Source: Thermoplasmatota archaeon (GTDB lineage: Archaea > Thermoplasmatota > JAKEGO01 > JANQNJ01). Taken from it: 24,000 nucleotides of DNA. Below, in pieces: positions 1 to 19,237 of this stretch. The notes under the pieces were generated by a model. The model was not told the origin of the DNA, searched no databases, and was given only the letters and a program-made list of their open reading frames with translations. A program made the translations under genes and the position numbers. The DNA lies in the NCBI GenBank assembly GCA_028279645.1, contig JANQNJ010000023.1, forward strand, positions 11,754 to 35,753. Direction: 5' to 3'. Position 1 is the stretch's first letter. Every line of letters starts with the position of its first letter.

Positions 1-3000
1 ATCGGGATGGGTCACATTTACTCGGATGGAACAATTGACTATTGTGACATTATAGATGCGATAGAACCCTTGGTTATCCGTAGACATCTGTCCGCTGCCG
101 CATTTCCCCAGATAGACATACGCTCCTTTGATCGGGCTGCCTTCCTCATCCTTGACATATCCCGAAAGGACGCCGGGATTCTCCCATTCGACATCGTCTG
201 GCTCGTCAGACCAAGGTTTCATCAATGGATATCTGTCGGTGGCATTACCGTCTCCATCCAGGTAATATGGTGTATCACCGATCCCATCCCCATCCGAATC
301 GGTTCCGTCGTAATCGGACCAGTAATTACCAACAGAGCCATTATCCCAGTAGCTCACGTTATTATCCGTGCTTGCCTGTGCAGTCTCGGGGCTATTATCA
401 ATGAAATCATTGTTCTCGAATAGGTCATCACTGCCATTGGGTGGAGGGGTATCATAAACGTATACGCCATAATTACTATTGTTCTCAATTCTATTGTATC
501 GAATTAGATTATGTCGCGTACTCTGAAGGTAGATACCTGATTCATTATTCGCAGAGATAGAGCATTTCTGGATCGTTAGATTATGAGTTCCTCTGAGCTC
601 AAGGCCGTGTCTCTCGTTCGAATGAAAGCTCGAGGAATTGATAGAACCATTCCCTGTATCTCCATACATGAGGATTCCCGATTGAGCGTTTTCGCTTATC
701 GAACAGTTCTGAATATTGATTTGCTGGCACGTATGAAAGCGGATGCCGGCCTGTCTGGTGCTTCCGCGGAATGTGCAATTGAAGAGCTGAATATCAATAC
801 AATCCGAGAAAAGAGCGCAATAACCACTTGAATTTAGGAATTGAGAATCTTTGATGATCAATCGATTGCATTTCTCTGCGTCGAAGGTAGCGCCCAGACT
901 GCCACTATCGCCAATAACCGTCACGTTTCTGATAACGACATTATCCGCATTAACCTTGAAATGCGATCCTTCTTCATCCAGATCAATGAAAGTCGATGTA
1001 GATCTGTTTCCAATGAGCATTAACTGTTTCTTCAATGAAATGTTACCTATATAGGATCCGGAATAAATCCGGATCATATCCCCAAGTTTTGCCGAATCAA
1101 TAGCGAGCTGAACATTATCGAAATCGGCCCACGAACCATTATCATCATCGACGATCCATGTCCTAGGCGACCCTATCACGAATGATCCGTTCCACAGCTT
1201 CATCAGCGGATATCGATCTGTAGAGTTGTCTCCATCTATGGAATATGGTGTATCCCCGATCCCGTCCTCGTCCGAATCTTCACCATCATAGTCCGACCAA
1301 TAATTACCATACGTACCTGTGTCCCATTTGGTATGACTACCTCTATCGAATGCCTGGACCCCTCCATCATTGTTGTCAATGAGGTTGTTCAAGTAGATCT
1401 CATTGTATTCACAAAATAAAGGAACATTGACCCCATAAAAATCCTGATCGACCATCGTGTTGTTGTCGATAATGTTGTGATCTGATCCGTTCTTCAATTT
1501 GATACCGTTCTCGGCATCCGGGTGGACGGCTTCCCAACCATTGTTGTATTTGATGGTATTGAAGCATATGTGATTGTATGAGCCATCGCTGATGATGATC
1601 CCGCCCTTGGTATTCCTGATGACCTTATTATTGATCAATAGATTGTACTCACCCGATATTGAGATACCCATCCGGAAGTTCTTGGACACCAGATTGTCTT
1701 CAATGAGGTTGTTGGAACCATTGATTACGATACCAGAACCTTCTGTGTTGTTGTGGACATTACAATCGGAAATCGTATTCATATCTGAAAATACGTGAAT
1801 TGCTTCCTGGTCATTTCCAGATCCTGTGATCTCGAATCCAGTGAGCCGGACCATATTCGCTCTAATGGAAACCGCTCTCCAATTCTTGCGTGCGTCGATC
1901 TTGGTTGAAGAGGATCCGTTTCCTACGACTTTCAAACTCTTCTCAATTATCAGTCGTTCCTTATAGGTTCCATTGAAAACCCTTATCTTATCCCCATTTT
2001 CAGCAGCATCCATCGCATCAGGTATATTATCGAAATCAGCCCAGGAGCCATTGTCGTCATCGACGATCCAAGTATCGTAGGCGAACTGTTCCGGTCCGCT
2101 CCAAGGAGCGATCAATGGGTACCGATCAGTGATATCACTGTTGCCTCCGATATTATACGGCTCATCGCCGATCCCATCCCCATTTGTATCACTACCGTCG
2201 TAATCCGACCAGTAATTGCCTACCGAGCCATTGTCCCAAAGGTTGTCATCGTCCTTGTTGTCGTAGGCCTGACTCAACTTGCCATTGTTTATGAACGTGT
2301 TCCAATAGACCATATTCTCTCGAGAGGAATCCGAGCTTGGCGCTCCGAGCTCAACACCGTATTCTCCATTATCTCTGAATAGATTGCCGTAGATCGTCAC
2401 ATCGATGGCGTCATAGTTGAAATCCAATCCATCATCAGAATTATTATGGAATACATTGTTCCGGAAGGTCACCCCATAGCTGATGTGAACGTGAAAACCG
2501 TCCAGGCCGTTGTCGAAGACCTCGCAGTTTTCGAACACGGTCCCTTTATGGATAGCATTTAGATATGCTCCTTGTTTCCCGTTCGAGTAGATACTGCAAT
2601 TACGAATTGTATTATCATATGTGTAGCCGCCGATCCCAAGACCCCGCTCGGTATTATTGAACATCGAACAATCCTCGAGGGTCATGTTGTTACAGTCATC
2701 GGTTGTGTAAAAACCGTAGTCCCCGTTCTCATAGAAGTCGCATTCCTTTATCTGATGCCCACTCGAGTATTCTATCCTGACACCTACGTTGAAACGTTTG
2801 ACATCAACACGTAACAATGAGATATTCGCTCTCTCTACCCATATGCCAATACCATCTTCATCTCCACTTACCAGGATGTTCTTAATAACACAGTTTGAAG
2901 ATTGTACATCTACCGTGATCGATCGATTGTAGGATATTATCGTGGTCCTGTCGGTGCCGTTTCCTATTATCGTCAACTTCTTCTCTATCAATAGATCCTC

Positions 3001-4497
3001 TGTATAGGTACCATTGTACACGAGGATAGTATCTCCGGCCCTTGAATTATCGATCGCTCCTTGAATGGTATTGTACTCGGCCCATGATCCGTTATCGTCG
3101 TCGACGGTCCAGGTATGTACCTCTTCCATGGTAATGTTGTGCCAGGTGTCGTTGCCGATACCGATCGATGATGTGACCGATCTATAGCCTTGAGCATAGG
3201 CAGTGACCTTCTTCGTGCAGTTGCATATCCAGATATCGTTCATAACGTAGGAGCCGTTTGTATCTGTCTTGGTCTGTTGGAGACGATCATGATATTCGAG
3301 ACTGATCAGAACATCCTTTATCGGATCACCTGATCCATCCTCAACATATCCGGACAGCTTGCCATCGTGCTCCGGCTCATAAGGATGCAATGAACCGTTC
3401 CATGGCGCCATCAATGGATGGTCATCAGAAGCGTTTGCATCGCCATTCAGTTCATATGAGATATCTCCGATACCGTCGCCGTCCGAATCCGTGCCGTTGT
3501 AATCGGACCAATAATTACCGACCGAACCGTTGTCCCAGTGCTCGTCGTCATTATCCCCATCCTGGAAACCCTGAGGGGTTTTGTTATTCCCTTTGAACGT
3601 GTTCCAATAGATATGTATGCGAATCGAGCTGGTTAGTTCTAATCCGTATGCATCGTTATCACAAATGGTGTTGCCATAGACATGGACCGAGTCCCCCACT
3701 GCTATGTCAATGCCGTCCTCAGAATTGTTGTGAATATGATTGTTGCGTACGACAATGTTATCCGGGCCGGATATATGAAAACCATCATACTGATTGTGAT
3801 GGACGACGCAATCCTCGACAATGGAACCGTCATCGACCGGGATATAGGCGCCATGGATATGGTTTCCATATATCGAACATCCTCGGACTATAATGTGATA
3901 GGAATAGGAACTCAACCGCAGACCGGAGTCCGAGTTGTTGAAGATAGAACAGTTCAGTATGGTTATGTTGTTACAGCTTCCTTGCGTTCGCATTCCCCAT
4001 CCTGTATTATTGAAGATCCGACAACCTTCAAGATGGTGCCCATCTGTGTATTCCGTGAAGATACCAGTACCAAAGAAGCTCACGTCTGTTTTCTTCAAAG
4101 TGAAGTCGTCTTCTTCGATGATTATACCTATGTATTTGCTGTTACCGTAAACGGAGATGCCTTCTATAGACACATTTGCAGCTTCGACAGTTATGATCCT
4201 GTTGTGACTCTTGCCTTTGATGTATGAATTCCCTGTACCATTCCCGGATAGACTAACTGATCTATTGATATTGATATCCTCATGATATGTCCCGGCGTAG
4301 ATCCTTATGAGATCTCCATTTTCACACTCATCCAGTGCATCCTGAATATTATCATGATCCGCCCCCGCCCAATCATCATCGACAATCCAGGTCTTCCCTC
4401 CAACGGTACCAATGAACACCATCCCTAAGAACAGGATCAACCCGATCACGATCATCCTAACAGGAAAATGACAAGACCTCCCAAAACGAAACCTCAT
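1..4497 (-). CDS. Giant secreted right-handed beta-helix (PbH1/NosD-like) repeat surface protein, paralog C. The 5' end is complete and the 3' end runs off the left edge of the window.
   Basis: It is not in the supplied ORF track because it has no in-window stop. I read plus-strand triplets 1-3, 4-6 and so on up to 4497 and found no tta, cta or tca, so the minus frame is open for 1499 codons. ATG is at 4497-4495. Translation begins MRFRFGRSCHFPVRMIVIGLILFLGMVFIGTVGGKTWIVDDDWAGADHDNIQDALDEC, collinear with the N-termini of the paralogs at 4648-8004 and 8164-13722. There are four complete modules. Each opens with a TW(I/T)VDDD...GD.I.V..G.Y motif and closes with GNYWSDY.G.D.DGDGIGD..Y....D.YPL. 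Two CarboxypepD_reg-like inserts are present. Start choice is less certain: in-frame ATGs also occur at 4581 and 4455. Confidence 0.85.
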   Translation of the reverse strand, partial: MRFRFGRSCHFPVRMIVIGLILFLGMVFIGTVGGKTWIVDDDWAGADHDNIQDALDECENGDLIRIYAGTYHEDININRSVSLSGNGTGNSYIKGKSHNRIITVEAANVSIEGISVYGNSKYIGIIIEEDDFTLKKTDVSFFGTGIFTEYTDGHHLEGCRIFNNTGWGMRTQGSCNNITILNCSIFNNSDSGLRLSSYSYHIIVRGCSIYGNHIHGAYIPVDDGSIVEDCVVHHNQYDGFHISGPDNIVVRNNHIHNNSEDGIDIAVGDSVHVYGNTICDNDAYGLELTSSIRIHIYWNTFKGNNKTPQGFQDGDNDDEHWDNGSVGNYWSDYNGTDSDGDGIGDISYELNGDANASDDHPLMAPWNGSLHPYEPEHDGKLSGYVEDGSGDPIKDVLISLEYHDRLQQTKTDTNGSYVMNDIWICNCTKKVTAYAQGYRSVTSSIGIGNDTWHNITMEEVHTWTVDDDNGSWAEYNTIQGAIDNSRAGDTILVYNGTYTEDLLIEKKLTIIGNGTDRTTIISYNRSITVDVQSSNCVIKNILVSGDEDGIGIWVERANISLLRVDVKRFNVGVRIEYSSGHQIKECDFYENGDYGFYTTDDCNNMTLEDCSMFNNTERGLGIGGYTYDNTIRNCSIYSNGKQGAYLNAIHKGTVFENCEVFDNGLDGFHVHISYGVTFRNNVFHNNSDDGLDFNYDAIDVTIYGNLFRDNGEYGVELGAPSSDSSRENMVYWNTFINNGKLSQAYDNKDDDNLWDNGSVGNYWSDYDGSDTNGDGIGDEPYNIGGNSDITDRYPLIAPWSGPEQFAYDTWIVDDDNGSWADFDNIPDAMDAAENGDKIRVFNGTYKERLIIEKSLKVVGNGSSSTKIDARKNWRAVSIRANMVRLTGFEITGSGNDQEAIHVFSDMNTISDCNVHNNTEGSGIVINGSNNLIEDNLVSKNFRMGISISGEYNLLINNKVIRNTKGGIIISDGSYNHICFNTIKYNNGWEAVHPDAENGIKLKNGSDHNIIDNNTMVDQDFYGVNVPLFCEYNEIYLNNLIDNNDGGVQAFDRGSHTKWDTGTYGNYWSDYDGEDSDEDGIGDTPYSIDGDNSTDRYPLMKLWNGSFVIGSPRTWIVDDDNGSWADFDNVQLAIDSAKLGDMIRIYSGSYIGNISLKKQLMLIGNRSTSTFIDLDEEGSHFKVNADNVVIRNVTVIGDSGSLGATFDAEKCNRLIIKDSQFLNSSGYCALFSDCIDIQLFNCTFRGSTRQAGIRFHTCQQINIQNCSISENAQSGILMYGDTGNGSINSSSFHSNERHGLELRGTHNLTIQKCSISANNESGIYLQSTRHNLIRYNRIENNSNYGVYVYDTPPPNGSDDLFENNDFIDNSPETAQASTDNNVSYWDNGSVGNYWSDYDGTDSDGDGIGDTPYYLDGDGNATDRYPLMKPWSDEPDDVEWENPGVLSGYVKDEEGSPIKGAYVYLGKCGSGQMSTDNQGFYRIYNVTIVNCSIRVNVTHPD
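3121..3363 (-). other. CarboxypepD_reg-like beta-sandwich insert between beta-helix modules 1 and 2 of paralog C
   Basis: Translation is GKLSGYVEDGSGDPIKDVLISLEYHDRLQQTKTDTNGSYVMNDIWICNCTKKVTAYAQGYRSVTSSIGIGNDTWHNITMEE. The G.V.D..G.PI..A.V.L......T.TD..G.Y pattern is typical of carboxypeptidase-regulatory-like domains. A second copy lies at 1-177 (GVLSGYVKDEEGSPIKGAYVYLGKCGSGQMSTDNQGFYRIYNV). Confidence 0.55.
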
Positions 4498-4639
4498 ATC
4501 GAATACCTCCGATGCAATTGACTCAAATGACGACCATCGTTTTTCATGCAGACTCCTCCCCGATGGCGGTATACCTATCATTGTCCCAGAGGTATTATAT
4601 TACAATTGGAAGGCGGTTGGTAGGATATTTAAAGCTTTT
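4494..4639 (-). promoter_or_regulatory. Promoter and leader of paralog C: BRE/TATA-like box, then a 17-codon upstream ORF whose TGA overlaps the main ATG
   Basis: The minus strand reads AAAGCTTTAAATATCC (plus 4624-4639), a good archaeal BRE/TATA match. A second AT-rich box, TAATATAATACC, lies at plus 4591-4602. GGGGAGGAG sits 5 nt before ATG 4547. The uORF (4547-4494) encodes MKNDGRHLSQLHRRYSI and ends in ATATGAGG, where its TGA (4496-4494) overlaps the main ATG (4497-4495). Confidence 0.4.
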
Positions 4640-4647
4640 GGTCTCGA

Positions 4648-7600
4648 TCAATCACTTCTGTTGGTGTAACAACGTCTGAACTGACCTTCCTTTTCGAGCC
4701 TGACCTTGCCGATCCTCTCAAGCATCTTGATGTTGTAGTTCACGGTCTGCTGTCGCTTTTCAAGGATCTTGGCGATCTCCTTCTGGAAGATACCCGGGTG
4801 AGACTCGATGGTCTTCAAGATGTCGATCTGAAGCTCACTCAGTCTGAACTTCTCATCCTTTGGGAACTTCATTCCTGTTGGATAGAAGGCTCTGAACCTG
4901 AGCCCTTCTCTTCGAGATTTTATCAGTTCCATCTTCTCTAGTGTGTAGAGATGATGAGAGAGTGTACCGTTTGTAACCTCAAGTTCCTTTAGGATCTTCG
5001 TATAGTGTACACCAGGATTGGTCTTCACGTAGCCGTAGATCTGGCCCCGGACGAAGTTGTCGAGGACCTCGTCCTTGGAGCGATCCTTCATTCGGGCATA
5101 CATCGATGCGAATGCGCCTATCAATAGGAACTTTCCTGTTTCGGTGAGGGCGATCAACGAAATTACAGACAGGCTGATAATTGCGCCTATCCCGACCTTC
5201 TCTGATGGCGAGAGTGGTCTGATTATGGAACCGTCATCGCTTTCGCTCCTCGGGTCTTCATCATCGGTGGAATTATTCTTAATGAAGATGTAGATAACCT
5301 TGGTATTGGAAAAGTGGTTGCCATCATAGGACCTTAATGAGACGGTGGTATTACCATTAGGGAAATCCGTGATCGGCAATGATATGGTCCACAGGTCGGT
5401 ACCATTGGCGATATTCCAAGTATCATTTGCGATCTTGATATTTACTGAGACTACAATTCTATTATCAGAAGCGCTTCCCGCCAGCGTCAGAACATCAGAG
5501 ACCACGGTTCCATTTAGTGGAGCTGAAATGGATATTGATGGTGGTTTTTGATCTCGAGTGTTACCAGGTTGCATCAACGGATAGATATCTTTGCTATTAC
5601 CACCCCCATCTATTGGGTATGATGTATCCCCTATGCCGTCATTGTTATGATCGGTCCCGTTGTAATCAGACCAATAATTACCTCCGCTCCCACTGTACCA
5701 CGTGTTTTCATTCGAGTCATCATTGCATTGTGATCGAGAGACCTTGTTATCAATGAACATATTTTGAGTGACAACGTTATCTCCAGTTTGGTTCTCGTGA
5801 TTTCTGAAATCTATCCCATAGCCATCGTTATTGGAGATATTGTTGTAGGTAATCGTTATTCTATTCCCAAATATATCTAAGCCCTCAGCCGAATTCCCAA
5901 TTATTGTACAATTATCAATCAGTATGTCATGAGCGGAAATGTCAATGCCTGAAGACCCTGAATTGGAAATTGAACTATTCAGTATCATCGCATGATTAGT
6001 TCCCCATAAATAAAGACCATCATAGTTACTATTCTCAATTGTGCAATTTCGTATAGTTAAATAATCACCGTTATGAAGATAAATACCATGGGCGGCGGAA
6101 TCATTCACAATAGTATCACGGATTTCATTTGTAAGGTTATATGGATTACGACCCTCGATCTTAATGCCATAGGATTTTTCAATTATGCAGGAGGTTATCG
6201 TATAACCTGAATACTCTTCTAACCGAATCCCGTCTGGATTGTTCTTGAATGTACAATTGTCAATGATCACATGATAGAATTCGTTCTCTCTCCTTGGATC
6301 CCGCCCGAAAATGGAGAATTCATCGTTGTTCTTGAAAGTACAATTACGTACTGTTAAATTCGATCCGGAAAATCGCAAACCGTTATAATTACCGTTCATG
6401 GTGGAATTTTGAATAGTAAGGAAGTTGCCTTGATGATAGATCCCTACGCCAGTGTGATCTTTTATGATGCAATCGGATAGAGTAACATGATCTCTTCGAT
6501 TGATCTCGCAACCACTTCCTCTATCTGTCGAAGAAAGAATAGTGAATCCGTGGACAGTGACTCTATTTGCGGATATCAGTAGGGGGTCTTCGTCATCGGT
6601 TTTACCATTTCCAATGATCGTTGTGTTCGCCGAGCCGTTACCGATTAACTTTATCCTTTTTGTAATATTGACGAAGGAATTATAGGTACCATTGAACACG
6701 TAAATCGAATCATATGGGTTCGAATTATTGATGGCGTCCTGTATACTGGTATAGTTGGACCAGTTACCCACATCGTCATCTACAACCCAAACTGTGGGTG
6801 AAGGAAGTTCGATGTCTCTCATCATCGGATAAATATCCTCTGATCCAGATGTTCCCGAGATCGTCATTGGTTGATCACCGGTTCCATCAATATCAAGATC
6901 GGTTCCCGAATAATCAGACCAATAATTTCCTTCGCCGATTTGATACCAACTGGTTCCACCGCAATTGTCTAGGGCTTGGGTCTCGTTGCCGTTGTTCCAG
7001 ATGAAGTCGTTATCATAAACCAGATTCTGTGAGAAGGAATAGTTTCTCGAGAAATGTTTATTTGGCGAGAACCTGACTCCATATCGGGAGTTGTTATCGA
7101 TTGTATTGTGTGTGATCGAAATGTTGTAAAAATGACCTGATCGATCAGGATTGAAATCGATTCCGTAAATATGATTCCGGCTAATTGAATTGTTAGATAT
7201 CTGAACATTGTTCGTGTTATCCATGCAGAACCCAGATCGAACATTACCTACCAATTCGTTATCCAGAACCAGGAGTCCCGCCACATTACCTGTTGTCCAA
7301 ATTCCATTATAACCGTTGTATCTACAAGAATTGTTGATGACTGAAGAATTAAAACTATCATAGATCACTGAAATTCCATCAACATCGTTGTATTCACAGG
7401 TATTGTTCAGAATGAAAGTATTTTCTGAGCTATAGAACATTAATCCTCTTCCTTTGTTTTCAAAGATGATGTTTCCATCGATCCGACTATTGTTCACATA
7501 ATAGAAATCTAATCCACCATCATTATTTGAGACTAGATTATCTTCAAACGTGAGGTTGTAGCAATTCCTTGCGATGACTGCATCATCATTGTTCGCAATG

Positions 7601-8004
7601 TTAAGCTTGTAAAAGGAGCAATGAGAACTATTAAAGAGTTCGATACCGCAATATTTTATTTTATTACTATGGATCTCACCGCTGTTCCTAATTGTCAATG
7701 AGGAAATATGAACATTATCGCTTATGATTCTGATTACATCCCCGATATTATCTCCATCAATAATGGTATTCGAACCGTTTCCAATGATTGTCAAGGGTTT
7801 CGAAATTCGGACACGTTCTATGTAGGTGCCGTTGAATATTCTTATTGTGTCAAATTCCGAAGTTCCATTATAGGCTTCTGCGAGTGTGTTGAAATCCGCT
7901 CCCGCCCAATCATCATCAACGATCCAAGTCTTCCCACTCCCGTTACCCGCCACCAGCACGAGAATAAATAAAAGACCTCCCATGATATACACATAATGTC
8001 TCAT
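4648..8004 (-). CDS. Giant surface beta-helix protein with C-terminal TM anchor and cytoplasmic double winged-helix module, paralog A (1118 aa)
   Basis: Complete ORF in the track. The N-terminus MRHYVYIMGGLLFILVLVAGNGSGKTWIVDDDWAGADF is signal-peptide-like. There are two beta-helix modules with many 20-25 aa PbH1-like coils (I.NN...GI.L..S.N..I.NN). The module ends are GNYWSDYSGTDLDIDGTGDQP...DIYPMM and GGNYWSDYNGTDHNNDGIGDTSYPI...DIYPLM. An Ig-like stalk follows (PPSISISAPLNGTVVSDVLTLAGSASDNR...), then an acidic linker, a hydrophobic segment VGIGAIISLSVISLIALTETGKFLLIGAFASMY, and two wHTH-like domains. Confidence 0.9.
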   Translation of the reverse strand: MRHYVYIMGGLLFILVLVAGNGSGKTWIVDDDWAGADFNTLAEAYNGTSEFDTIRIFNGTYIERVRISKPLTIIGNGSNTIIDGDNIGDVIRIISDNVHISSLTIRNSGEIHSNKIKYCGIELFNSSHCSFYKLNIANNDDAVIARNCYNLTFEDNLVSNNDGGLDFYYVNNSRIDGNIIFENKGRGLMFYSSENTFILNNTCEYNDVDGISVIYDSFNSSVINNSCRYNGYNGIWTTGNVAGLLVLDNELVGNVRSGFCMDNTNNVQISNNSISRNHIYGIDFNPDRSGHFYNISITHNTIDNNSRYGVRFSPNKHFSRNYSFSQNLVYDNDFIWNNGNETQALDNCGGTSWYQIGEGNYWSDYSGTDLDIDGTGDQPMTISGTSGSEDIYPMMRDIELPSPTVWVVDDDVGNWSNYTSIQDAINNSNPYDSIYVFNGTYNSFVNITKRIKLIGNGSANTTIIGNGKTDDEDPLLISANRVTVHGFTILSSTDRGSGCEINRRDHVTLSDCIIKDHTGVGIYHQGNFLTIQNSTMNGNYNGLRFSGSNLTVRNCTFKNNDEFSIFGRDPRRENEFYHVIIDNCTFKNNPDGIRLEEYSGYTITSCIIEKSYGIKIEGRNPYNLTNEIRDTIVNDSAAHGIYLHNGDYLTIRNCTIENSNYDGLYLWGTNHAMILNSSISNSGSSGIDISAHDILIDNCTIIGNSAEGLDIFGNRITITYNNISNNDGYGIDFRNHENQTGDNVVTQNMFIDNKVSRSQCNDDSNENTWYSGSGGNYWSDYNGTDHNNDGIGDTSYPIDGGGNSKDIYPLMQPGNTRDQKPPSISISAPLNGTVVSDVLTLAGSASDNRIVVSVNIKIANDTWNIANGTDLWTISLPITDFPNGNTTVSLRSYDGNHFSNTKVIYIFIKNNSTDDEDPRSESDDGSIIRPLSPSEKVGIGAIISLSVISLIALTETGKFLLIGAFASMYARMKDRSKDEVLDNFVRGQIYGYVKTNPGVHYTKILKELEVTNGTLSHHLYTLEKMELIKSRREGLRFRAFYPTGMKFPKDEKFRLSELQIDILKTIESHPGIFQKEIAKILEKRQQTVNYNIKMLERIGKVRLEKEGQFRRCYTNRSD
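4651..5202 (-). other. TM segment (about 5098-5202) plus 149-aa cytoplasmic tandem winged-helix-turn-helix tail (4651-5097) of paralog A
   Basis: The tail reads ARMKDRSKDEVLDNFVRGQIYGYVKTNPGVHYTKILKELEVTNGTLSHHLYTLEKMELIKSRREGLRFRAFYPTG (wHTH 1) and LSELQIDILKTIESHPGIFQKEIAKILEKRQQTVNYNIKMLERIGKVRLEKEGQFRRCY (wHTH 2). Both follow the ArsR/MarR/TrmB-type helix-turn-helix-wing pattern. The basic residues directly after the hydrophobic stretch (ARMKDRSK) fit the positive-inside rule, which would place the tail in the cytoplasm. Confidence 0.7.
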
Positions 8005-8097
8005 TGAATGCTCCTCCTGATGCAGCCAAAGGGGGCGTCGAAATCCATTTGATCCCCTGTGTATATCATAGAACGTGGACTACGGCTTATATACAAA
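8001..8097 (-). promoter_or_regulatory. Promoter and conserved leader of paralog A: TATA-like box, conserved ATGATATACAC motif, uORF, SD-like GGAGGAG
   Basis: The minus strand reads TTTGTATATAAG (plus 8086-8097), then about 20 nt later ATGATATACACAGGGGATCAAATGGATTTCGACGCCCCCTTTGGCTGCATCAGGAGGAGCATTCAATGA. Most of this is shared with the leader of paralog B. The uORF encodes M(IYTGDQM)DFDAPFGCIRRSIQ. It starts at 8069 or 8048, and its TGA (8003-8001) overlaps the main ATG (8004-8002). Confidence 0.5.
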
Positions 8098-8163
8098 TTG
8101 GAAATGGATTTGGTATACTATTTAATCCTTGTGGTGGTAACGCAATCTAATGATAGGACCTAG

Positions 8164-11100
8164 TTACTCGGTGTTATCTGAGTAACACCGCTTAAGCCGC
8201 CCTTCCTTCTCCAGTCTGACCTTCCCCACCCTTTCCAGCATCTTGATATTATAATTAACAGTCTGCTGCGGCTTCTCCAATGTCTTGGCCACTTCCTTCT
8301 GGAAGATGCCGGGATGATCCTCGATCAGCTTGATTATGTCGACCTGGAGGTCGGTCAGTCGGAACTTCTCCTCCTCGGGGAACTTCATTCCTGTGATGTA
8401 GAACGCTTTGTAGCGCAAGCCCTCGGTCCGTGATTTTATCAAGCCCATTTTCTCCATTGTGTAGAGATGGTGAGAGAGGGTTCCGTTGGTGATCCCAAGG
8501 GCTCTCTTAAGCTTTCCATAATGGGAGCCGGGGAAGGCGGTGAGGTATCCGTAGATCTGTCCGCGGACGAAGTTGTCGAGGACCTCGTCCTTGGAACGTT
8601 CCTTCATACGGGCATAGGCTGCCAATGCACCCGCGAACAAGGCGTATCGTCCTGTCTCTGTCGCTAGAAACATGAGAAAGAGGGATGCGCCGATCCCGGC
8701 CCCGATCGGGATGATCGGGAGTGCGGAATCGGATCCGCCTCCTTCCTGACCTCCATTGCCGCCGCCGCCATTCGAGGAGGTGGTCTTGTTCACATTCAGG
8801 GTGACCGAGGATATATTGGAATAGTGTATGCCATCGAAGGACCGGAGATCGATAGTTACTGATCCGTTGGGTAGCATAGACGATTTGAGATTCAAACTCC
8901 AGTTCGATGTTCCCGATACCGCTTTCCAGGTCCCGTTATCTATTCTGTACTGGACGATCTGCAGGAATCTGTTGTCGGAGGCAGAGCCTTCGATAGTGAC
9001 ATTGCCGGTAACGACCGTTCCGTTCATTGGTCCGTCGATGGAGACCGTTGGCGGTTCGGAATCCCAGGCATAGGTCTTTTCGGTCAGGGGATACCTGTCA
9101 GTGTTGTTCTTAGGGGTGTCCAATGGCACATACCCGATGACATAAGGGACCTCGCCGATCCCGTCGTTGTTGATATCGTAACCCGTGTAATCGGACCAGT
9201 AGTTCCCGATCGTTCCATTGTCCCAGTAATTCTTGCCGTCCCCGCCCTCTGCCGCCTGAGAAGTGAGGTTGCCGGAATTGCCGTAGAACTGATTATTGTA
9301 TACAACGGTGCCCGTGCTCTGACCGATCTCAACACCCAGATCGTTATCGGAGATCAAACAACGGGTCACGGTGATGTTATCTGCCCTGTAGATATAGATC
9401 CCAGATTCGGTGTTGTTGTGAACATAGCACCCATCGACCACGATCTTGATCTTGGTCCTATAGAACCTTAATCCTGAATAGTCATTGTGCGAAGCCTCAC
9501 AAGAAGTGATCGAGACATTGTCCATGTCCCCATCGAATTCAAAACCATAGTATCCAGTGTTCGAGGCAAGGCACTCCTGAACGGTCAGATTCGAGCAATC
9601 CCTTAGGTCGAAACCTGTGTTGTTCGTGCCGTTCACGCGGACATTCTGGATCTTGGTGTCATTACAATTCGCGATGACGATTCCGCGGATGTGTTCTCCG
9701 CTGCCATCGACAGAGATATTTAATAATGTGACATGATCGGACCTGGAGATCTCCAATCCGCCAAGTGAGTTATTGAGCACGACATCTTCAATAACGACCT
9801 TATCAGAAAATGAGATGTCTACACCGTACCAGCTGCCGCTGATATTTGTATTCGATATCGAGATATCGTTCGACCGATATCCGGAGATACCAGATTCCTG
9901 CAATGTGGCTGAAGAGACCATGATGTTATCGCTCTCATAGATACTGATCCCTGTGGACGATATACCACTATCTATCAAATGGTTGCAATTAATGATCGAA
10001 ACGTGTGAGCTGTAATCGATGTTGACAGCAATCTGTGTATCGTCGAAGAGAACGTCATCGATGTCCACATAGGAAGATCTATCAAGATCGATGCCGATCC
10101 GGTTCCTGACGAATTCATTCCTCTTCAAGGTGATGTAGGAACCATTTGCAGTTATTCCAAAGGAGGCGTTAATGATCTTCACATCATTGATCTTACAATG
10201 ATCGCCGTTTATCTCGATGGCATCATTACGAGGGTCATCGTTATGATATTCAATGACCAGGTCCGTGATGGAACATTGATCGGTTTCCACGTTGATGATC
10301 GTAATATTCTCGATCCCTGACAGCACTGTATCAGTACCGTTCCCTTTGATCCGCACAGGTATATCGATATTGATCGTCTCACTGTACTGACCGTCATAGA
10401 CAAGGATGAGCTCGCCACCGACCGACGCATTAAGAGCATCACCGATCGTACTGAAGTTCGCTCCAGCCCAGTCGTCATCCACGATCCAGATAGCGGAGGT
10501 TGGTCTAGGATCTGAACCCCCCCAGGGCTCCATCATCGGGTACCTATCGATCACGATGTCCTCTTCAATGATGTGGGGCTGGTCACCGACACCATCGTCG
10601 TCCTCATATGTCCCGCCGTAGGTCGACCAATAATTACCATGGGAGCCGTTGTCTAGGTAAATCACCTCTTCCGAAGAAGAATCGTAGGTGCATTGCTCCC
10701 ACCCATTATTGTTATCGATGAAATTATTGTGATGGATACTATATTCAGTAGAATCACCGACCAATGTTAGACCTTCTCGGCTATTGTTCCGGATAGTGGA
10801 GTTCGTGAGTACCAATTCTTCAACGTAAAGATAGGCTCCAACACCATCATTATCCTCGATAAGGACCCTATCCATTAGGACAGGATCTGACCACATCATG
10901 CTCATACCGCCCCAATCGTTCCCTGTAACCGTTATATTTTCCATTGTTATCGAGGAATCGTCTATTTCGCATCCGTAACGATAGTTGACAGATAGCGTCG
11001 CGTTTTTCAGAGTTCCTAAAGAGCCATCTACCTCTAATCCAGATTCACCATTGAACGAACAATTGATCCAGTTCAATGAGAAATGATCTGTGCGATCAAT

Positions 11101-13722
11101 GAGCAGCCCCTGTTCTTCATTCTCAGAGAAGGTGCAGTTTTCGATCAATAAATTCGTATAATCTCTTGCCATGATCCCGCTCTCACCATTGAACGATATG
11201 TTGGAGTTCCGAACGATCAAGGTGGCATTCGAGCTATAATCTGCTAATAGCCCTTCATTCCTTGAATCGATTATCATGGAATTATTGATCTCGACAAATC
11301 GGGTGTTCTCGATCATGATCCCCTCTCTTCCCGAATCGGTGATCGAAACGTTTTCGATATTAATTTCCTCGCTACGTTCAATTAGCAGCGCTGTGTCTGT
11401 AGTATTTGAGATGGTGAGATCTCGAATCCGTATATCGTTCGATTCGTGTATATACGACCCGTAATAGCTCGAGGGACTATTATCCCCAACGATCGTTAGG
11501 TTCTCACAATAATATATCATAAATTGACCTATATCGCCGATGAATATCTGATCTTGGAGGTTCTGTAACAGGAGGATGCTCGAACCTTCTGTCGATGTAT
11601 TGTGAATATAGTTATCCTCCATCCTGTCGGACCTGAACCCTCCATCGACGGTGCAATTGGAAATTGTATTATAACGCCCCGTGATCTGTATTCCCTCTTG
11701 GACTGTCTTAGTTATTGATGTATTATTTATCAACCCTTGATCAGAATTTGACAAGAGAACGGCTGCTTCCTCACAGCCCGTAATAGTGCAGTTCTCGATT
11801 GTGATCCGATCGCTGCTGGACCCATATATGGCTCTCAATGAAATGTTCAAGAACGAAGAATTTGAGATGAGGATATCATTGCATCGATACATTTTGATCG
11901 GTCTGGCTATATTCTCCAACGCCAAGGATTCGATCGAGATGTTGTGGCAGTCGTACATGATGAGCTGGCCGACCTCATTTCCGATGGCACTGTTGTTCTT
12001 TTCCTTCAAAATGACGAGAGGCCTGTCTTGAACGGTACAGTTATCAAGTGTGTATGTGTCTGAGTAATCAAGAGAAAATCCCATTGTTGTGGAACAATTC
12101 ACTAATGTGATCTCCTCTCCCAGCGAGATGATCACATCATCCCTTCCATTATCAAAAAATGAACAATTATTTATTGCCACATTATCGGTCAGCCGGATGT
12201 AAATGCCCTCCTCACTGTTGCTATAGACCTGGCTGTCCGATAAGGTAACTGAGTCGGAATGATCACACCTTAATCCAAGTGTACCATTCGATAGTGATGT
12301 CCCCTGGATATCGATGGACTCGGCCTCTTCAATAAAGATGCAATAAGATTCAGCCTGAACATCAAGTTCCTGGAAACTGAACTGGCTCCCGTTGATAATA
12401 AATATTCCGAATGAAGTTCCCTCGATCGAGCAGTTGGATATTGTTACTCGTTCGCATCCAGCTAGGTACATTCCATGGTACCCTCCAATCACCGACCAGT
12501 TAGAGATCTCTATGTCGGTGCAGTTAAGGAGGATCACCTGGCCTTCTCCACCATCCAACTGAATATTTGATCGTTTCTTTAGAAACGTGATCGGGTCACC
12601 CTTGAGGGAGCAGTTATCGATCTTATCGATATTAACAACGGTCCAATATGCCATTCCACTGTTGAATGAGCAGTCAACGAAGGAAAAAGATTCGCGACCT
12701 CTCGAATCGATGTCTATCCCTGAATTATTGAACGTACAGTTGCTGGCGAAGATCTCTTTGGCATTGTCCCGTATACCCTCCAGGGATCCGGTGATGATAC
12801 AATCGTACAGTTCTAAGTTCGAATCGCTTGGTGAGATGCCGTATTCATGATTATCGATCAGTACCGTGTTCGTCATCTCGATGTTAGATCGGCTTACTAT
12901 GAGTCCTGCTTTAAAGTGACCAATGTACGAGTCGGTGATCGAGCCGGTGATGATGTCTCTCATCCGTATGCCGATTCCGGTGCTGTTTGTCACGGTTACA
13001 TTCGAGATCGTCATCCTAGAAGCAGTGTAAATACCTGCAAAATCACCTCGGATATCCGATGCAGATACGTTGGTGACGATCACTTCATCGTTCCCGGAAA
13101 GGATCATGCTCCTCCCGCCATCGAACTGGCAGTCATCAATGGTCACACTATCTGAATCATAGACCCGGACATTGAAATCGGAAGATGAGAACATACTTTG
13201 CTCGATCGATATGTTCCCGCCGTTCCAAACCCATAGAGTACTGTCGCCACCGATATCAGAGGTTCCGGCCGACATATTGCAGTTCCTGAACGTAAGGTCG
13301 CCTGAATAAAGCGCTCGGAAACCGTGACCTGCTGAGTTCACAGTGAGGTTTGAAAAAAGACCAAGGTCTACATACCATAGTTCGATGCCAAATTCCTTTC
13401 TTCCTGAGGATATTGAAAAACCATCCAGTTGGAAAAATGATGCATTTACATCAAGCGTCTTCCCAGTGGATTCGATCTCCGACAGACCGGAACCATTTCC
13501 GATCAGTGATAGGTTCCGATCTACGACGACCTGTTCATGATACCGGCCATCATAGACCCTAATGACGTCATCGGGATCCGCACTGTCCACTGCATCCTGT
13601 ATCCGGTCGAAATCCGCACCTGCCCAGTCATCATCCACAATCCAGGTCCTTCCCCCGCACCCACCTACCACCATTACTAGAATAAGGAAAAGACCTCCCA
13701 TGATATACGCATAATACCTCAT
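8164..13722 (-). CDS. Giant surface beta-helix protein with C-terminal TM anchor and cytoplasmic double winged-helix module, paralog B (1852 aa)
   Basis: Complete ORF in the track. The N-terminus is MRYYAYIMGGLFLILVMVVGGCGGRTWIVDDDWAGADF. One very long beta-helix module of roughly 1000 aa carries dozens of coils marked by .NC(S/T). and ends at HGNYWSTYGGTYEDDDGVGDQP...DRYPMM. A second module starts at AIWIVDDDWAGANF and ends at GNYWSDYTGYDINNDGIGEVPY...DRYPL. Then come an Ig-like stalk (PPTVSIDGPMNGTVVTGNVTIEGSASDNR...), a Gly-rich linker, the TM segment LPIIPIGAGIGASLFLMFLATETGRYALFAGALAAY, and a double wHTH tail. Confidence 0.9.
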   Translation of the reverse strand: MRYYAYIMGGLFLILVMVVGGCGGRTWIVDDDWAGADFDRIQDAVDSADPDDVIRVYDGRYHEQVVVDRNLSLIGNGSGLSEIESTGKTLDVNASFFQLDGFSISSGRKEFGIELWYVDLGLFSNLTVNSAGHGFRALYSGDLTFRNCNMSAGTSDIGGDSTLWVWNGGNISIEQSMFSSSDFNVRVYDSDSVTIDDCQFDGGRSMILSGNDEVIVTNVSASDIRGDFAGIYTASRMTISNVTVTNSTGIGIRMRDIITGSITDSYIGHFKAGLIVSRSNIEMTNTVLIDNHEYGISPSDSNLELYDCIITGSLEGIRDNAKEIFASNCTFNNSGIDIDSRGRESFSFVDCSFNSGMAYWTVVNIDKIDNCSLKGDPITFLKKRSNIQLDGGEGQVILLNCTDIEISNWSVIGGYHGMYLAGCERVTISNCSIEGTSFGIFIINGSQFSFQELDVQAESYCIFIEEAESIDIQGTSLSNGTLGLRCDHSDSVTLSDSQVYSNSEEGIYIRLTDNVAINNCSFFDNGRDDVIISLGEEITLVNCSTTMGFSLDYSDTYTLDNCTVQDRPLVILKEKNNSAIGNEVGQLIMYDCHNISIESLALENIARPIKMYRCNDILISNSSFLNISLRAIYGSSSDRITIENCTITGCEEAAVLLSNSDQGLINNTSITKTVQEGIQITGRYNTISNCTVDGGFRSDRMEDNYIHNTSTEGSSILLLQNLQDQIFIGDIGQFMIYYCENLTIVGDNSPSSYYGSYIHESNDIRIRDLTISNTTDTALLIERSEEINIENVSITDSGREGIMIENTRFVEINNSMIIDSRNEGLLADYSSNATLIVRNSNISFNGESGIMARDYTNLLIENCTFSENEEQGLLIDRTDHFSLNWINCSFNGESGLEVDGSLGTLKNATLSVNYRYGCEIDDSSITMENITVTGNDWGGMSMMWSDPVLMDRVLIEDNDGVGAYLYVEELVLTNSTIRNNSREGLTLVGDSTEYSIHHNNFIDNNNGWEQCTYDSSSEEVIYLDNGSHGNYWSTYGGTYEDDDGVGDQPHIIEEDIVIDRYPMMEPWGGSDPRPTSAIWIVDDDWAGANFSTIGDALNASVGGELILVYDGQYSETINIDIPVRIKGNGTDTVLSGIENITIINVETDQCSITDLVIEYHNDDPRNDAIEINGDHCKINDVKIINASFGITANGSYITLKRNEFVRNRIGIDLDRSSYVDIDDVLFDDTQIAVNIDYSSHVSIINCNHLIDSGISSTGISIYESDNIMVSSATLQESGISGYRSNDISISNTNISGSWYGVDISFSDKVVIEDVVLNNSLGGLEISRSDHVTLLNISVDGSGEHIRGIVIANCNDTKIQNVRVNGTNNTGFDLRDCSNLTVQECLASNTGYYGFEFDGDMDNVSITSCEASHNDYSGLRFYRTKIKIVVDGCYVHNNTESGIYIYRADNITVTRCLISDNDLGVEIGQSTGTVVYNNQFYGNSGNLTSQAAEGGDGKNYWDNGTIGNYWSDYTGYDINNDGIGEVPYVIGYVPLDTPKNNTDRYPLTEKTYAWDSEPPTVSIDGPMNGTVVTGNVTIEGSASDNRFLQIVQYRIDNGTWKAVSGTSNWSLNLKSSMLPNGSVTIDLRSFDGIHYSNISSVTLNVNKTTSSNGGGGNGGQEGGGSDSALPIIPIGAGIGASLFLMFLATETGRYALFAGALAAYARMKERSKDEVLDNFVRGQIYGYLTAFPGSHYGKLKRALGITNGTLSHHLYTMEKMGLIKSRTEGLRYKAFYITGMKFPEEEKFRLTDLQVDIIKLIEDHPGIFQKEVAKTLEKPQQTVNYNIKMLERVGKVRLEKEGRLKRCYSDNTE
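8167..8724 (-). other. TM segment (about 8614-8724) plus 149-aa cytoplasmic tandem winged-helix tail (8167-8613) of paralog B
   Basis: The tail ARMKERSKDEVLDNFVRGQIYGYLTAFPGSHYGKLKRALGITNGTLSHHLYTMEKMGLIKSRTEGLRYKAFYITG...LTDLQVDIIKLIEDHPGIFQKEVAKTLEKPQQTVNYNIKMLERVGKVRLEKEGRLKRCY aligns with the paralog A tail without gaps. By hand count, 110 of 149 residues are identical. Confidence 0.7.
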
Positions 13723-13812
13723 TGATTGCTCCTCCTGTTGCAGCCGAAGGGGGCGTCGATCATCTTTTATCCCCAGTGTATATCATTCGATGGACACCTC
13801 CGGATAAATACG
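13719..13812 (-). promoter_or_regulatory. Promoter and conserved leader of paralog B: TATA-like box, ATGATATACAC motif, uORF, SD-like GGAGGAG
   Basis: The minus strand reads CGTATTTATCC (plus 13802-13812), then about 20 nt later ATGATATACACTGGGGATAAAAGATGATCGACGCCCCCTTCGGCTGCAACAGGAGGAGCAATCAATG. The uORF (13763-13719) encodes MIDAPFGCNRRSNQ. Its TGA (13721-13719) overlaps the main ATG (13722-13720). Confidence 0.5.
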
Positions 13813-13890
13813 AGTTGGTACTTCTTTCGGTATTTTACTTAAGGATTTTGGTGGTGAAAGATCGATATCAGGCTTCTCTGGTCGCCTAGA

Positions 13891-13904
13891 AAAGGTATAT
13901 ATCC
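13891..13904 (+). promoter_or_regulatory. BRE/TATA-like box for the transporter gene (divergent from the paralog B promoter)
   Basis: AAAGGTATATATCC is centred about 27 nt upstream of GTG 13926. That spacing fits a leaderless or near-leaderless archaeal transcript and supports the GTG start. Confidence 0.45.
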
Positions 13905-13925
13905 GCCCTCTGCCTACCCCGAAAC

Positions 13926-15995: not shown

Positions 15996-16076
15996 ACAGC
16001 AGCTGCCGGGAAAATGCTTGAAGAGAGATCGTAGCTATTAATTGGAGCATCAAGTTATTGCATCAACGGATGTGCT

Positions 16077-16616
16077 CTAACTGAGCTCCTCCTCGATGGA
16101 ATCTGCCAGCTGGATGCACCTGTCGTAATGACGTGTCCTCAGCGAGGTAGCGGCCATTCTGAGGACCGATCGTGCGTGGACGGTATCCTTGCCTATCCGG
16201 TTCGCCCTTGCGATGGTCCTACGGGCCTCCCTGAGCCTTCTCTTCGCCATTCTTGCATCGAAACCATCAGAGGGTGGGGAAGGTACTGGCTTGTGGGCTT
16301 CGGCCCTATGTGACGGGGGTGTCTCGAACGCATCGTCCCGATCTACTTCATGCTCATACCTTGCGGAAACCGGCTGACCGGTTCCAGCCGTCTGCCGCTT
16401 ATGCTCCTTCTCGTGATGTTCGGGCGAGATCCCCATGACGGCTATCAGAACAAGGATCACCAGGAGGACCTGGGTCATGAGGAGCTGGATGATATCCGTG
16501 CTGCTCCACTGCCCGCCGGTCCCCAGGACGATGACGAAAGGTATGACTATGATCAGTATGGATGCGCTTATGCCGATGGTCAGCATACTCCTTCTGGGGC
16601 CTCTGTGACCGGTCAT
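16077..16616 (-). CDS. Hypothetical membrane protein: two N-terminal TM helices, a Pro/His-rich linker and a basic helical C-terminus
   Basis: The ORF lies 63 nt downstream of glnS on the same strand. The TM helices are MLTIGISASILIIVIPFVIVLG and LLMTQVLLVILVLIAVMGI. I recognise no family. The start could be the second Met (MLTIG). Confidence 0.5.
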   Translation of the reverse strand: MTGHRGPRRSMLTIGISASILIIVIPFVIVLGTGGQWSSTDIIQLLMTQVLLVILVLIAVMGISPEHHEKEHKRQTAGTGQPVSARYEHEVDRDDAFETPPSHRAEAHKPVPSPPSDGFDARMAKRRLREARRTIARANRIGKDTVHARSVLRMAATSLRTRHYDRCIQLADSIEEELS

Positions 16617-16679
16617 GGGCTCTCGGTCCCACTAATGCGATGCTGTTGTAATATGTCTTTCGGACCAGGGGTTGAAGGC

Positions 16680-18359: not shown

Positions 18360-18459
18360 CTGATACTCTCCGTTCCAGGTCGTGCTCACCGACCCGGACC
18401 TCCTCGAAATCACGCTAGGATGATAATAAGGATTTGGGTCGGATCGGGACCACGCACGC

Positions 18460-18810: not shown

Positions 18811-18842
18811 CTCTATCCAATTGGTTAACACAGCCACATGGA

Positions 18843-18854
18843 CTTATATTTTTT
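18843..18854 (-). promoter_or_regulatory. TATA-like box upstream of the hypothetical gene and glnS operon
   Basis: The minus strand reads AAAAAATATAAG, roughly 35-45 nt upstream of ATG 18810. Confidence 0.35.
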
Positions 18855-19111: not shown

Positions 19112-19120
19112 ACGTATCCC

Positions 19121-19225: not shown

Positions 19226-19237
19226 ACGGCTCCCAAC

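Follow-up and report, generated by a model that had tools for sequence, protein, structure and literature searches.

What would a surface protein of adhesin size do with a pair of winged helices on the cytoplasmic side of the membrane? The question is raised by three genes in a window of 24,000 nucleotides (the whole stretch of DNA analysed here: contig JANQNJ010000023.1 of assembly GCA_028279645.1, positions 11,754 to 35,753) from a Thermoplasmatota archaeon. Thermoplasmatota are abundant in sediments, oceans and guts and are mostly uncultured, and to our knowledge archaeal signal transduction is poorly known. The genes, designated C, A and B in their order along the window, are co-oriented on the minus strand and fill positions 1-13722. 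A first-pass annotation of this DNA had described them as three co-oriented paralogs, the two complete ones with a common order of parts, ectodomains of ~900 and ~1650 residues and two winged helix-turn-helix (wHTH) domains within 149 aa. Gene layout and strand were confirmed; Pfam and AlphaFold2 (AF2) reproduced the order of parts and the wHTH pair, and the ectodomains measure ~910 and ~1645 residues. We propose that the three proteins act as type-I transmembrane transcription regulators, a predicted function to which we give roughly even chances.

All three proteins are built in the same order: a signal peptide, beta-helix modules of the NosD/AlgE-like type, a Big_7 domain, a disordered linker, one transmembrane (TM) helix and a basic cytoplasmic tail, in which an ArsR-like winged helix is followed by a MarR-like one (Table 1). 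Pfam Beta_helix and NosD models matched the ectodomains with E-values of 1e-55 and 4e-40 (A), 4e-88 and 1e-66 (B) and 4e-106 and 1e-76 (C). Each beta-helix module of A opens with W-[IV]-V-D-D-D and closes with GNYWSDY...DGIGD...YP[LM]. The Big_7 Ig domain was matched at residues 822-889 of A (2.9e-6) and 1558-1624 of B, and C contains additional CarboxypepD_reg domains. At the C terminus, A and B each gave two separate HTH matches: PF24266 (HTH_HVO_0163_N) at residues 985-1043 and HTH_24/MarR at 1055-1102 in A, and the corresponding pair at 1719-1785 and 1789-1835 in B, again with HTH_24/MarR as the second. The PF24266 region is also matched by the HTH_5, HTH_20 and ArsR models. An NCBIfam scan of A and B yielded only sub-threshold matches of ArsR and NosD type, with no curated family spanning the whole protein.

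Gene C leaves the window before its 3' end, so that the first-pass annotation had been unable to verify its tail. Protein P0178 (2278 aa), whose gene shares a 42,418-bp NCBI contig with A and B, matches the 1499 visible residues of C at 100% identity and continues with a fifth beta-helix, a Big_7 domain (1985-2052), the linker, the TM helix and the double-wHTH tail. As P0178 is C over this length and carries the tail, we take the tail of C as established: C ends as A and B do. An alternative in-frame ATG of C at position 4581 (MIGIPPSGRS...) would add 28 aa and is used by P0322 (2306 aa); the true start is uncertain.

In an AF2 model of full-length A (mean predicted local distance difference test score, pLDDT, of 84), residues 2-19 form a hydrophobic helix at the N terminus, 26-395 and 405-812 two beta-helices, 823-908 a beta-sandwich, 912-932 a disordered acidic linker and 933-951 a TM helix. 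After a break of one turn, an unbroken helix (955-995) leads out of the membrane region and becomes helix 1 of wHTH1, with wHTH2 following. A separate model of the tail, made with 40 homologues, has pLDDT >90 across both winged helices. The best Foldseek matches of the beta-helix modules of A were the NosD subunit of NosDFYL (7osf_A; target TM-score 0.69, root-mean-square deviation (rmsd) 3.8 Å), the A-modules of the mannuronan epimerases AlgE4 and AlgE6 (2pyg, 5lw3; target TM-score 0.63-0.66), and AlgG, phage tailspikes and glycoside hydrolases. From these models, 'polysaccharide-interacting beta-helix' is a fair description of the predicted modules.

Two hydrophobic stretches precede the tail. 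The first is a helix of 17-20 residues rich in Gly, Ala and Ser, with an insertion free energy (dG) of ~0 kcal/mol on the Hessa scale; the second, of 10-13 aa, has a dG of ~+10 kcal/mol and is too short for a membrane span. For this reason we kept an N-out/C-in topology, in which the second stretch is probably an interfacial helix. There is one true TM helix, flanked by acidic residues outside and basic residues inside, and ~165 residues follow it in A, B and C. The ectodomains have an isoelectric point (pI) of 4.2-4.5 and 39-78 N-X-S/T sequons (~4 per 100 aa), and the tails a pI of 9.5-10.0 and a net charge of +8 to +16. Charge and composition match the N-out/C-in arrangement. The three are probably type-I, sugar-coated surface proteins, with glycosylation predicted from their sequons. 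Membrane-span count, segment dG and charge asymmetry agree with the cytoplasmic tail and the membrane-tethered-regulator architecture assumed in the first-pass annotation.

Between the membrane and wHTH1 lies an element that is conserved family-wide: a T-E-x-G-K motif, whose Glu is present in 134 of 143 tails, and a P-L-Y triplet that closes the second hydrophobic stretch in ~130 of 146 tails, followed by R/K-rich residues. In A, B and C the Pro of this triplet is missing. The element possibly forms an interfacial helix, mediates oligomerisation or is cut by a protease.

Is the tail a DNA-binding module? The first winged helix scores above the 31-bit gathering threshold of PF24266 in all three proteins (A 43.3, B 33.8, C 37.3 bits, the last measured on P0178), and each of the 112 family representatives that we scanned matched the same model. 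On ArsR/SmtB (NF033788, cut-off 55 bits) A and B remain below the cut-off, at 38.2 and 32.5 bits, and the tail has one Cys. wHTH2 of A reaches 33.5 bits on MarR (PF01047, cut-off 24.6) over profile positions 1-47 of 59 only, and that of B 19.9 bits; the AF2 models of A and of its tail contain no flanking dimerisation helices of the MarR type. The nearest solved structure by sequence is 5duk_A, a 77-residue 'putative DNA binding protein' (E 1e-7 to wHTH1). Single domains superpose on ArsR 6j05 (2.6 Å over 70 columns) and on MarR 3bpx (1.0 Å over 65 columns) in Foldseek. Profile matches, confident models and superpositions together bear out the earlier assignment of an ArsR/MarR-like wHTH pair. 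With the tail as a whole, Foldseek returned ESCRT-II subunits, ScpB, TFIIIC/RPC34 and SelB as best matches, at an rmsd of 11-17 Å. Given this deviation, what the tail has in common with ESCRT-II, ScpB and SelB is no more than the succession of two winged helices.

An alignment of 151 family tails (numbering of A) sets a conserved structural core apart from variable recognition-helix positions. Near-invariant are N-G before helix 3, H1018-L1019, L1022-E1023, G1034, F1040-Y1041-P1042 and Y1090. The wings are basic: R or K occupies position 1038 in 149 of 150 tails, R position 1039 in 114, and R or K positions 1105 and 1108 of the second wing in 130 and 113 tails. Exposed positions of the recognition helices vary (1014, 1016, 1020, 1085, 1086, 1093, 1096 and 1097). 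Conserved basic wings with variable recognition helices fit the pattern expected of DNA-binding winged helices. A and B have identical recognition helices (NGTLSHHLYT- and QQTVNYNIKMLER), nearly matched by those of C, which argues that the three proteins would address the same target.

The first-pass annotation knew of no characterised case of such a tail fused to a giant ectodomain. The fusion is not singular: the cassette occurs in ~2000 clusters and on many unrelated ectodomains. When 181 residues of A, covering the TM helix and the tail, were compared with 1.84 billion cluster representatives, 4853 proteins matched at E<=1e-3, of which 1996 also passed E<=1e-10 and 150 passed E<=1e-30. Among the best 150, which range from ~160 to 2278 aa, the tail lies mostly at or near the extreme C terminus, and 23 are at least 1000 aa long. 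Most complete sequences begin with a signal-like hydrophobic segment and have one TM helix right before the tail. An alignment-based scan in which each prokaryotic species was represented by one genome found 149 relatives; the same scan with a single tail sequence as query found none. All 80 loci kept from these relatives come from metagenome-assembled genomes of Thermoplasmatota type, labelled Thermoplasmatota, Thermoplasmata, Thermoplasmatales, Methanomassiliicoccales, Proteinoplasmatales or unclassified Euryarchaeota/'Methanobacteriota'. Database names within the family are automatic, for example 'winged helix-turn-helix transcriptional regulator'.

The ectodomains on this cassette are adhesin-like and heterogeneous, spanning 150-2100 aa. 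In 55 large members, Pfam counted FG-GAP_3 (15), CARDB (13), He_PIG (12), PKD_4 (11), Big_9 (11) and NPCBM_assoc (7), besides CarboxypepD_reg and beta-propeller families; smaller members carry PKD, CARDB or Big_1 domains, or no recognisable domain. Proteins that combine beta-helices with the tail recur on at least four other contigs (listed in Table 1), where the tails belong to more divergent subfamilies with other recognition-helix residues. Other C-terminal cytoplasmic add-ons also exist on giant beta-helix surface proteins: the tail-less relatives P0063, P0093 and P0095 have a different short cytoplasmic end after the TM helix, with GK(I/L)SKETYD-x-IK.

Two widespread subfamilies of small proteins have conserved surroundings. 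Members of ~340 aa (L045-L080) lie on the same strand as, and directly upstream of, an ABC importer of SBP_bac_5 and BPD_transp_1 genes at 17-18 loci. Members of ~450 aa (L003-L043), whose tails are closest to that of A (50-57% identity), are divergent from an exporter pair of ABC_tran (DrrA-like) and ABC2_membrane at 12 loci and are followed by SLOG (LDcluster4) and ARMT1-like genes at 18-19 loci. Neighbouring transporter operons are typical of dedicated regulators, and this moderately supports a transcriptional role of the cassette. The tandem giants P0060 and P0061, divergent from ABC_tran and 12TM_1 genes, occupy such a place as well. The SBP_bac_5 protein beside the ~340-aa subfamily is itself unusual, a membrane-anchored protein of 1242 aa with Big_7 repeats and a C-terminal TM anchor.

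The three giant genes are mosaics in composition. G+C content at third codon positions (GC3) is 0.78-0.80 in the host housekeeping genes of the window (13926-23949), 0.30-0.58 in the DNA encoding the ectodomains of A, B and C, and 0.64-0.65 (A) and 0.62-0.74 (B) in the ends encoding linker, TM helix and tail. Protein identity between A and B differs strongly from part to part: the first 45 residues are 64% identical, the beta-helices 24-28%, Big_7 49% and the tail 67%. These values suggest that the ectodomain DNA is compositionally foreign and exchangeable between conserved 5' and 3' ends, with the tails nearer to native composition. Such a mosaic would offer a mechanism for the fast swapping of surface domains.

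If A, B and C share a target, their own promoters are candidates. As the first-pass annotation had noted, the three genes share their leaders. The promoters align over a TTAA(A/G)TA box (TTTAAATA in C), a TAT(A/T)TA box and three CCAA-type repeats spaced ~15-20 nt apart (minus strand, 8085-8140, 13802-13860 and 4592-4640). The repeats were seen in these three paralogous promoters only; a similar CCAATCT-N4-5-CATATAA element precedes two giant genes of another genome (L001, 4640-4680 and 9950-9975). Judged from the alignment, the shared TATA/CCAA element could be an ordinary promoter of B recognition element (BRE)/TATA type or an operator. Moreover, the last 71 nt before the starts of A and B are 85% identical, compared with 56-58% at third positions of the flanking conserved coding DNA. 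Since this exceeds the identity at synonymous positions, the A/B leader is probably a constrained cis element. Within it, both genes have an upstream open reading frame (ORF) of 14-15 codons (MDFDAPFGCIRRSIQ, 8048-8001, minus strand, for A; MIDAPFGCNRRSNQ, 13763-13719, minus strand, for B), preceded by GGGGAT and ending in a TGA that overlaps the main start (ATGA). The AGGAGG of the main gene lies inside the upstream ORF. The C leader is without such an ORF. A leader peptide, translational coupling or a protein-binding site are possible sources of the constraint.

Other candidates for the leader were rejected. Folding z-scores near zero (-0.28, 0.02 and 0.14) speak against a leader RNA structure, and an Rfam scan returned only a tRNA, with no match in the conserved leader stretch. 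The 12 metagenome matches to the leader core in an exact-pattern scan are attributed to chance, all of them lying in unrelated high-GC contexts. K-mer enrichment in 72 tail-gene upstream regions against 490 control ORFs reflected the shared ancestry of the two small subfamilies and TATA-like words rather than an operator. A strict CCAA...TATA pattern, too strict for the purpose, found nothing in the window, and a scan for bacterial-type promoters and terminators, which is inapplicable to archaea, stayed near shuffle expectation.

The remaining part of the window holds the genes listed at the end of Table 1. The major facilitator superfamily (MFS) transporter divergent from B is unusually long, with an acidic N-terminal extension of ~90 aa and ~170 aa after its last hydrophobic segment. 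In other genomes the giants have different neighbours: the P0060/P0061 pair is divergent from ABC_tran and 12TM_1 genes, with a KaiC-like gene nearby, and the surroundings of P0062 resemble a defence island (KAP NTPase, SIR2, HNH, TIR-domain and PadR/HAAS genes).

Table 1 Features of the three giant genes, their relatives on other contigs and the rest of the window. Positions are nucleotides of the window unless given as residues (aa).
Feature	Position	Strand	Basis or remark
Gene C, 5' part	4497..1	-	1499 of 2278 codons visible, open at window edge
C: signal peptide and four beta-helix modules	aa 36-365, 462-797, 809-1100, 1113-1427	-	Pfam, module motifs
C: CarboxypepD_reg	aa 381-458 and from 1440	-	Pfam
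C: fifth beta-helix, Big_7, TM helix, double-wHTH tail	past left window edge	-	via P0178
Promoter/leader of C	4498..4647	-	perfect archaeal-type TTTAAATA box (within 4623-4635), CCAATTGTAATATAA element
Gene A, complete, 1118 aa	8004..4648	-	identical to database protein P0058
A: signal-peptide-like N terminus, aa 1-24	7933..8004	-	hydrophobic AF2 helix 2-19
A: two right-handed beta-helix modules, aa 26-395 and 405-812	5569..7929	-	Pfam, motifs, Foldseek
A: Big_7 Ig-like beta-sandwich stalk, aa 822-908	5281..5541	-	Pfam 2.9e-6; AF2 strands 823-908
A: acidic low-complexity linker, aa 909-934	5203..5280	-	pLDDT <50 for 912-940
A: TM helix, aa 937-953	5146..5196	-	hydropathy and dG scale; AF2 helix 933-951
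A: juxtamembrane element (TETGK 954-958, 12-aa hydrophobic 959-970, basic RMKDRSK 971-977)	5074..5145	-	
A: winged helix 1, ArsR-like, aa 985-1043	4876..5052	-	PF24266 3.9e-11, 43.3 bits vs cut-off 31
A: wHTH1 recognition helix NGTLSHHLYTLEK	4933-4971	-	
A: winged helix 2, MarR/HTH_24-like, aa 1055-1114	4663..4842	-	HTH_24 2e-10, MarR 3.9e-8
A: wHTH2 recognition helix QQTVNYNIKMLER	4714-4752	-	
Promoter/leader of A	8005..8163	-	TTAAATA (within 8117-8128), TATATAA (within 8085-8096), three CCAA-type repeats
Gene B, complete, 1852 aa	13722..8164	-	identical to P0059
B: signal peptide	13651-13722	-	
B: beta-helix region, aa 26-1065	10528-13647	-	
B: beta-helix, aa 1078-1548	9079-10491	-	
B: Big_7	8851-9051	-	
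B: Gly-rich linker	8719-8850	-	
B: TM helix	8662-8715	-	
B: TETGR, short hydrophobic stretch, basic cluster	8590-8661	-	
B: wHTH1	8368-8568	-	
B: wHTH2	8182-8358	-	
Promoter/leader of B	13723..13925	-	TTAAGTA and TATTTAT; region shared divergently with MFS transporter gene
P0060 (1819 aa) and P0061 (1726 aa)	in tandem; GCA_028279595.1 and a Logan contig		giant beta-helix and tail
P0062 (1842 aa)	L083		giant beta-helix and tail
P0064/P0323 (1490 and 1509 aa)			giant beta-helix and tail
P0065/P0325 (1600 aa)			giant beta-helix and tail; NCBI cluster member has only the name 'right-handed parallel beta-helix repeat-containing protein [Thermoplasmata archaeon]'
MFS transporter, divergent from B	13926-15995	+	689 aa
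Class-I Glu/Gln-tRNA synthetase	16680-18413		
tRNA-Gln (CTG)	19251-19323	-	
KaiC-like ATPase	19944-20636		
186-aa ORF without Pfam matches	20707-21267	+	GC3 0.55 vs ~0.8 in neighbours, as in the giant genes
Valyl-tRNA synthetase	21295-23949		

How could such a protein work? As type-I transmembrane regulators, A, B and C would be exported through their Sec signal peptides, and the large acidic ectodomains would be glycosylated and displayed. Their CASH/NosD/AlgE-type beta-helix modules, held on the Ig-like stalk, have a fold that binds or modifies polysaccharides and may do so here. The TE-x-G-K motif and the short interfacial helix would keep the basic winged-helix pair right beneath the membrane, where a single chain would replace the homodimer of ArsR- and MarR-type regulators and bind two adjacent DNA half-sites. 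We infer that the signal would lie in the ectodomain's state (attached to a surface polymer or a neighbouring cell, loaded, shed or degraded), which would decide whether the tail reaches DNA, either tethered or after proteolytic release. The three proteins would converge on one set of targets, to which their own similar promoters plausibly belong. Proteolytic release is suggested by the disorder of the stalk, by a TM helix rich in small residues and by the conservation of the juxtamembrane motif; the TM helix and TE-x-G-K are compatible with, and not diagnostic of, intramembrane cleavage, and the window contains no protease gene. From the surface-to-genome sensor proposed in the first-pass annotation, the tethered-regulator architecture, the winged-helix fold and the shared leaders are retained and the singularity of the fusion is dropped.

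Several observations weigh against a regulatory function. The best structural matches of the whole tail (ESCRT-II, ScpB, SelB) bind proteins or RNA. wHTH1 begins ~14 residues past the membrane-associated stretch, on a continuous helix, and this short distance leaves little room for duplex DNA. The ectodomains are family-wide of adhesin or structural type, and PAS, Cache, CHASE and HAMP are missing from the 25 most frequent families in both of our ectodomain surveys. Only 8 of 120 listed beta-helix relatives of A, A and B included, carry the tail. Among 113 tail-less relatives examined, 29 end in a TM helix and a short basic tail, <=15 residues from the end (some of them PGF-CTERM-like, several ending ...IPGFE-TM-RKKK), and 71 have no C-terminal TM helix, some ending in dockerin-like sequences. 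Since relatives carry plain anchors at this place, the tail occupies the 'anchor' position as an optional add-on. Finally, the context of the giant genes is not conserved, consisting here of the MFS transporter and tRNA synthetase genes. The lack of sensor domains among the frequent families, the anchor position and the ESCRT-II/ScpB/SelB matches lead us to retain a non-transcriptional role as the main rival reading, although we consider it rather improbable: the tail would be a cytoplasmic anchoring or coupling cassette that positions surface glycoproteins by binding a conserved cytoplasmic partner (a cytoskeletal, division or membrane-remodelling protein) or, non-specifically, the nucleoid. 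The winged helices of ESCRT-II and ScpB are known to bind proteins. One cassette on very many unrelated adhesin-like ectodomains, in the place of plain TM or PGF-CTERM-like anchors and very near the membrane, would be expected of an anchor, as would the strong conservation of the juxtamembrane motif and of many wHTH1 surface positions. However, the ESCRT-II and ScpB matches reflect the tandem arrangement only, and by sequence the tail matches regulator families (ArsR, MarR, HTH_24) rather than protein-binding winged helices. Its strongly basic charge, its conserved basic wings with varying recognition-helix positions, as in DNA binders, and the regulator-like synteny of the small subfamilies with transporter operons likewise argue against a mere anchor.

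Even a tail that binds DNA need not report on the outside. In a feedback for dosage or quality control, the tails of correctly inserted surface proteins, or conversely of degraded or shed ones, would repress or activate the family's own promoters. Such feedback would match the output of these costly giants to envelope occupancy and would account for the similar promoters of all three genes, for the unusually conserved A/B leader and for recognition helices that point to one shared target; the adhesin-like ectodomains, without recognisable ligand-sensor domains among their most frequent families, would also fit. We think this quite unlikely: the small conserved subfamilies adjoin transporter operons and not other surface-protein genes, no binding motif could be derived, with the CCAA-type repeats seen in three paralogous promoters only, and the small upstream ORF with its ribosome-binding site alone could explain the conserved leader. 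That the fusion is an artefact of mis-assembly, of read-through between two genes or of pseudogene decay could be suspected from the metagenomic origin of the contig and from the jump in GC3 near codon ~900 of A, which might in principle mark a chimeric join. We rejected this reading, whose probability is negligible, as the architecture recurs independently: the frames are uninterrupted over 1118, 1852 and, in P0178, 2278 codons; the part order is repeated three times in the window and again in P0060/P0061, P0062, P0064/P0323 and P0065/P0325; and most of the long proteins among the 150 best representatives carry the tail at or near the extreme C terminus. An extension of the regulator reading, which we hold to be unlikely, is that Thermoplasmatota at large use a large class of Notch-like adhesion receptors, in which recombination would swap ectodomains (beta-helix, FG-GAP, PKD, CARDB) onto a resident TM-wHTH cassette. 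Contact at the surface or shedding of the ectodomain would then lead to cleavage at or near TE-x-G-K, freeing a single-chain, pseudo-dimeric transcription factor.

What is at stake differs between these readings. If the tail binds DNA, ~2000 clusters would amount to a major and unusually direct coupling of surface contact to gene expression; if it binds protein, it would anchor archaeal surface glycoproteins in the cytoplasm in a new way. The Notch-like extension, if true, would add an archaeal route from surface to genome that depends on contact and is driven by proteolysis, and would supply natural substrates for archaeal intramembrane proteases. In either case the cassette is short (~150 aa), soluble and readily testable.

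Transmembrane transcription regulators, defined as proteins with at least one TM region and a DNA-binding domain in one chain, have been catalogued in archaea, with 1,384 counted in 404 species (Demey et al. 2023, PMC10269533). Given their TM helix and Pfam HTH matches above cut-off, A, B and C belong operationally to this class. Action on DNA from the membrane is established for membrane-bound regulators of bacteria and of Sulfolobus, and the motility and pilus regulators of the latter, ArnR and ArnR1 of Sulfolobus acidocaldarius, are the only characterised archaeal examples; Thermoplasmata, PKD and beta-helix domains go unmentioned in that survey (PMC10269533). Searches of the full-text literature found no characterised example of this tail-ectodomain fusion, and searches for COG3398 and for 5DUK found no paper. 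HVO_0163 of Haloferax, the eponym of PF24266, is named only in passing, as an ArsR-type factor that hypochlorite induces (PMC10294847). The earlier view that this architecture has neither name nor characterisation therefore stands in part: the class of regulator is known and catalogued, and the type-I design with an adhesin-sized ectodomain and a C-terminal tandem wHTH is uncharacterised in the literature searched.

Individual parts have clearer counterparts. NosD and the AlgE/AlgG C5-epimerases are the best structural matches of the ectodomain, and the C-terminal GNYWSDY...DGIGD...YPL signature is shared with Pfam NosD, but in A, B and C the modules are multiplied and membrane-anchored. On NCBIfam NosD (TIGR04247, cut-off 300 bits) A and B score 174.5 and 205.8 bits, and C reaches 349.8 bits only by adding 8 stretches from several modules; the window contains no nosZ, nosF, nosY, nosL or ABC genes. 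The proteins are not PGF-CTERM proteins either, having no PGF motif and a long segment after the TM helix. RodZ has an N-terminal Xre-type HTH that binds MreB rather than DNA. Its cytoplasmic HTH is likewise held by one TM helix with an extracytoplasmic domain opposite, which makes it a model for an anchoring tail and not a relative.

Among regulators, ArnR and ArnR1 are, like A, B and C, archaeal membrane-tethered HTH proteins; surface structures are under their control. In ArnR the HTH is N-terminal and the TM helices are C-terminal, and there is no large ectodomain. Regulators of the Notch, SREBP and ATF6 type are membrane-tethered and freed by regulated intramembrane proteolysis. They resemble our proteins, in the function proposed for these, by their type-I orientation, very large adhesion-type ectodomain, single TM helix and cytoplasmic part acting on transcription, but are eukaryotic and unrelated in sequence. 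The hybrid two-component systems of Bacteroides, mentioned in PMC10269533, also join a large extracytoplasmic domain, glycan-sensing in their case, to a DNA-binding domain in one membrane protein. They signal through histidine-kinase and receiver domains to an AraC-type HTH, whereas Pfam finds no HisKA, HATPase or Response_reg in A, B or C, whose tail is only ~150 aa.

Bacterial parallels in layout are ToxR, TcpP and CadC, in which an extracytoplasmic domain, a TM helix and a cytoplasmic DNA-binding winged helix share one polypeptide. All three are thought to act on DNA from the membrane, and TcpP is also under regulated proteolysis. Pfam gives no Trans_reg_C match in A, B or C, which places them outside the ToxR/CadC/TcpP group. 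ToxR and CadC are type-II proteins with an N-terminal winged helix of OmpR/PhoB type and a small C-terminal periplasmic sensor; A, B and C, by contrast, are type I, with a beta-helix ectodomain of 900-2100 aa, a C-terminal pair of ArsR-like and MarR-like winged helices and a far shorter linker to the membrane. If the tail binds DNA, the design would thus be unlike the characterised bacterial cases in its type-I orientation, its C-terminal single-chain double wHTH and an ectodomain of up to ~2100 aa.

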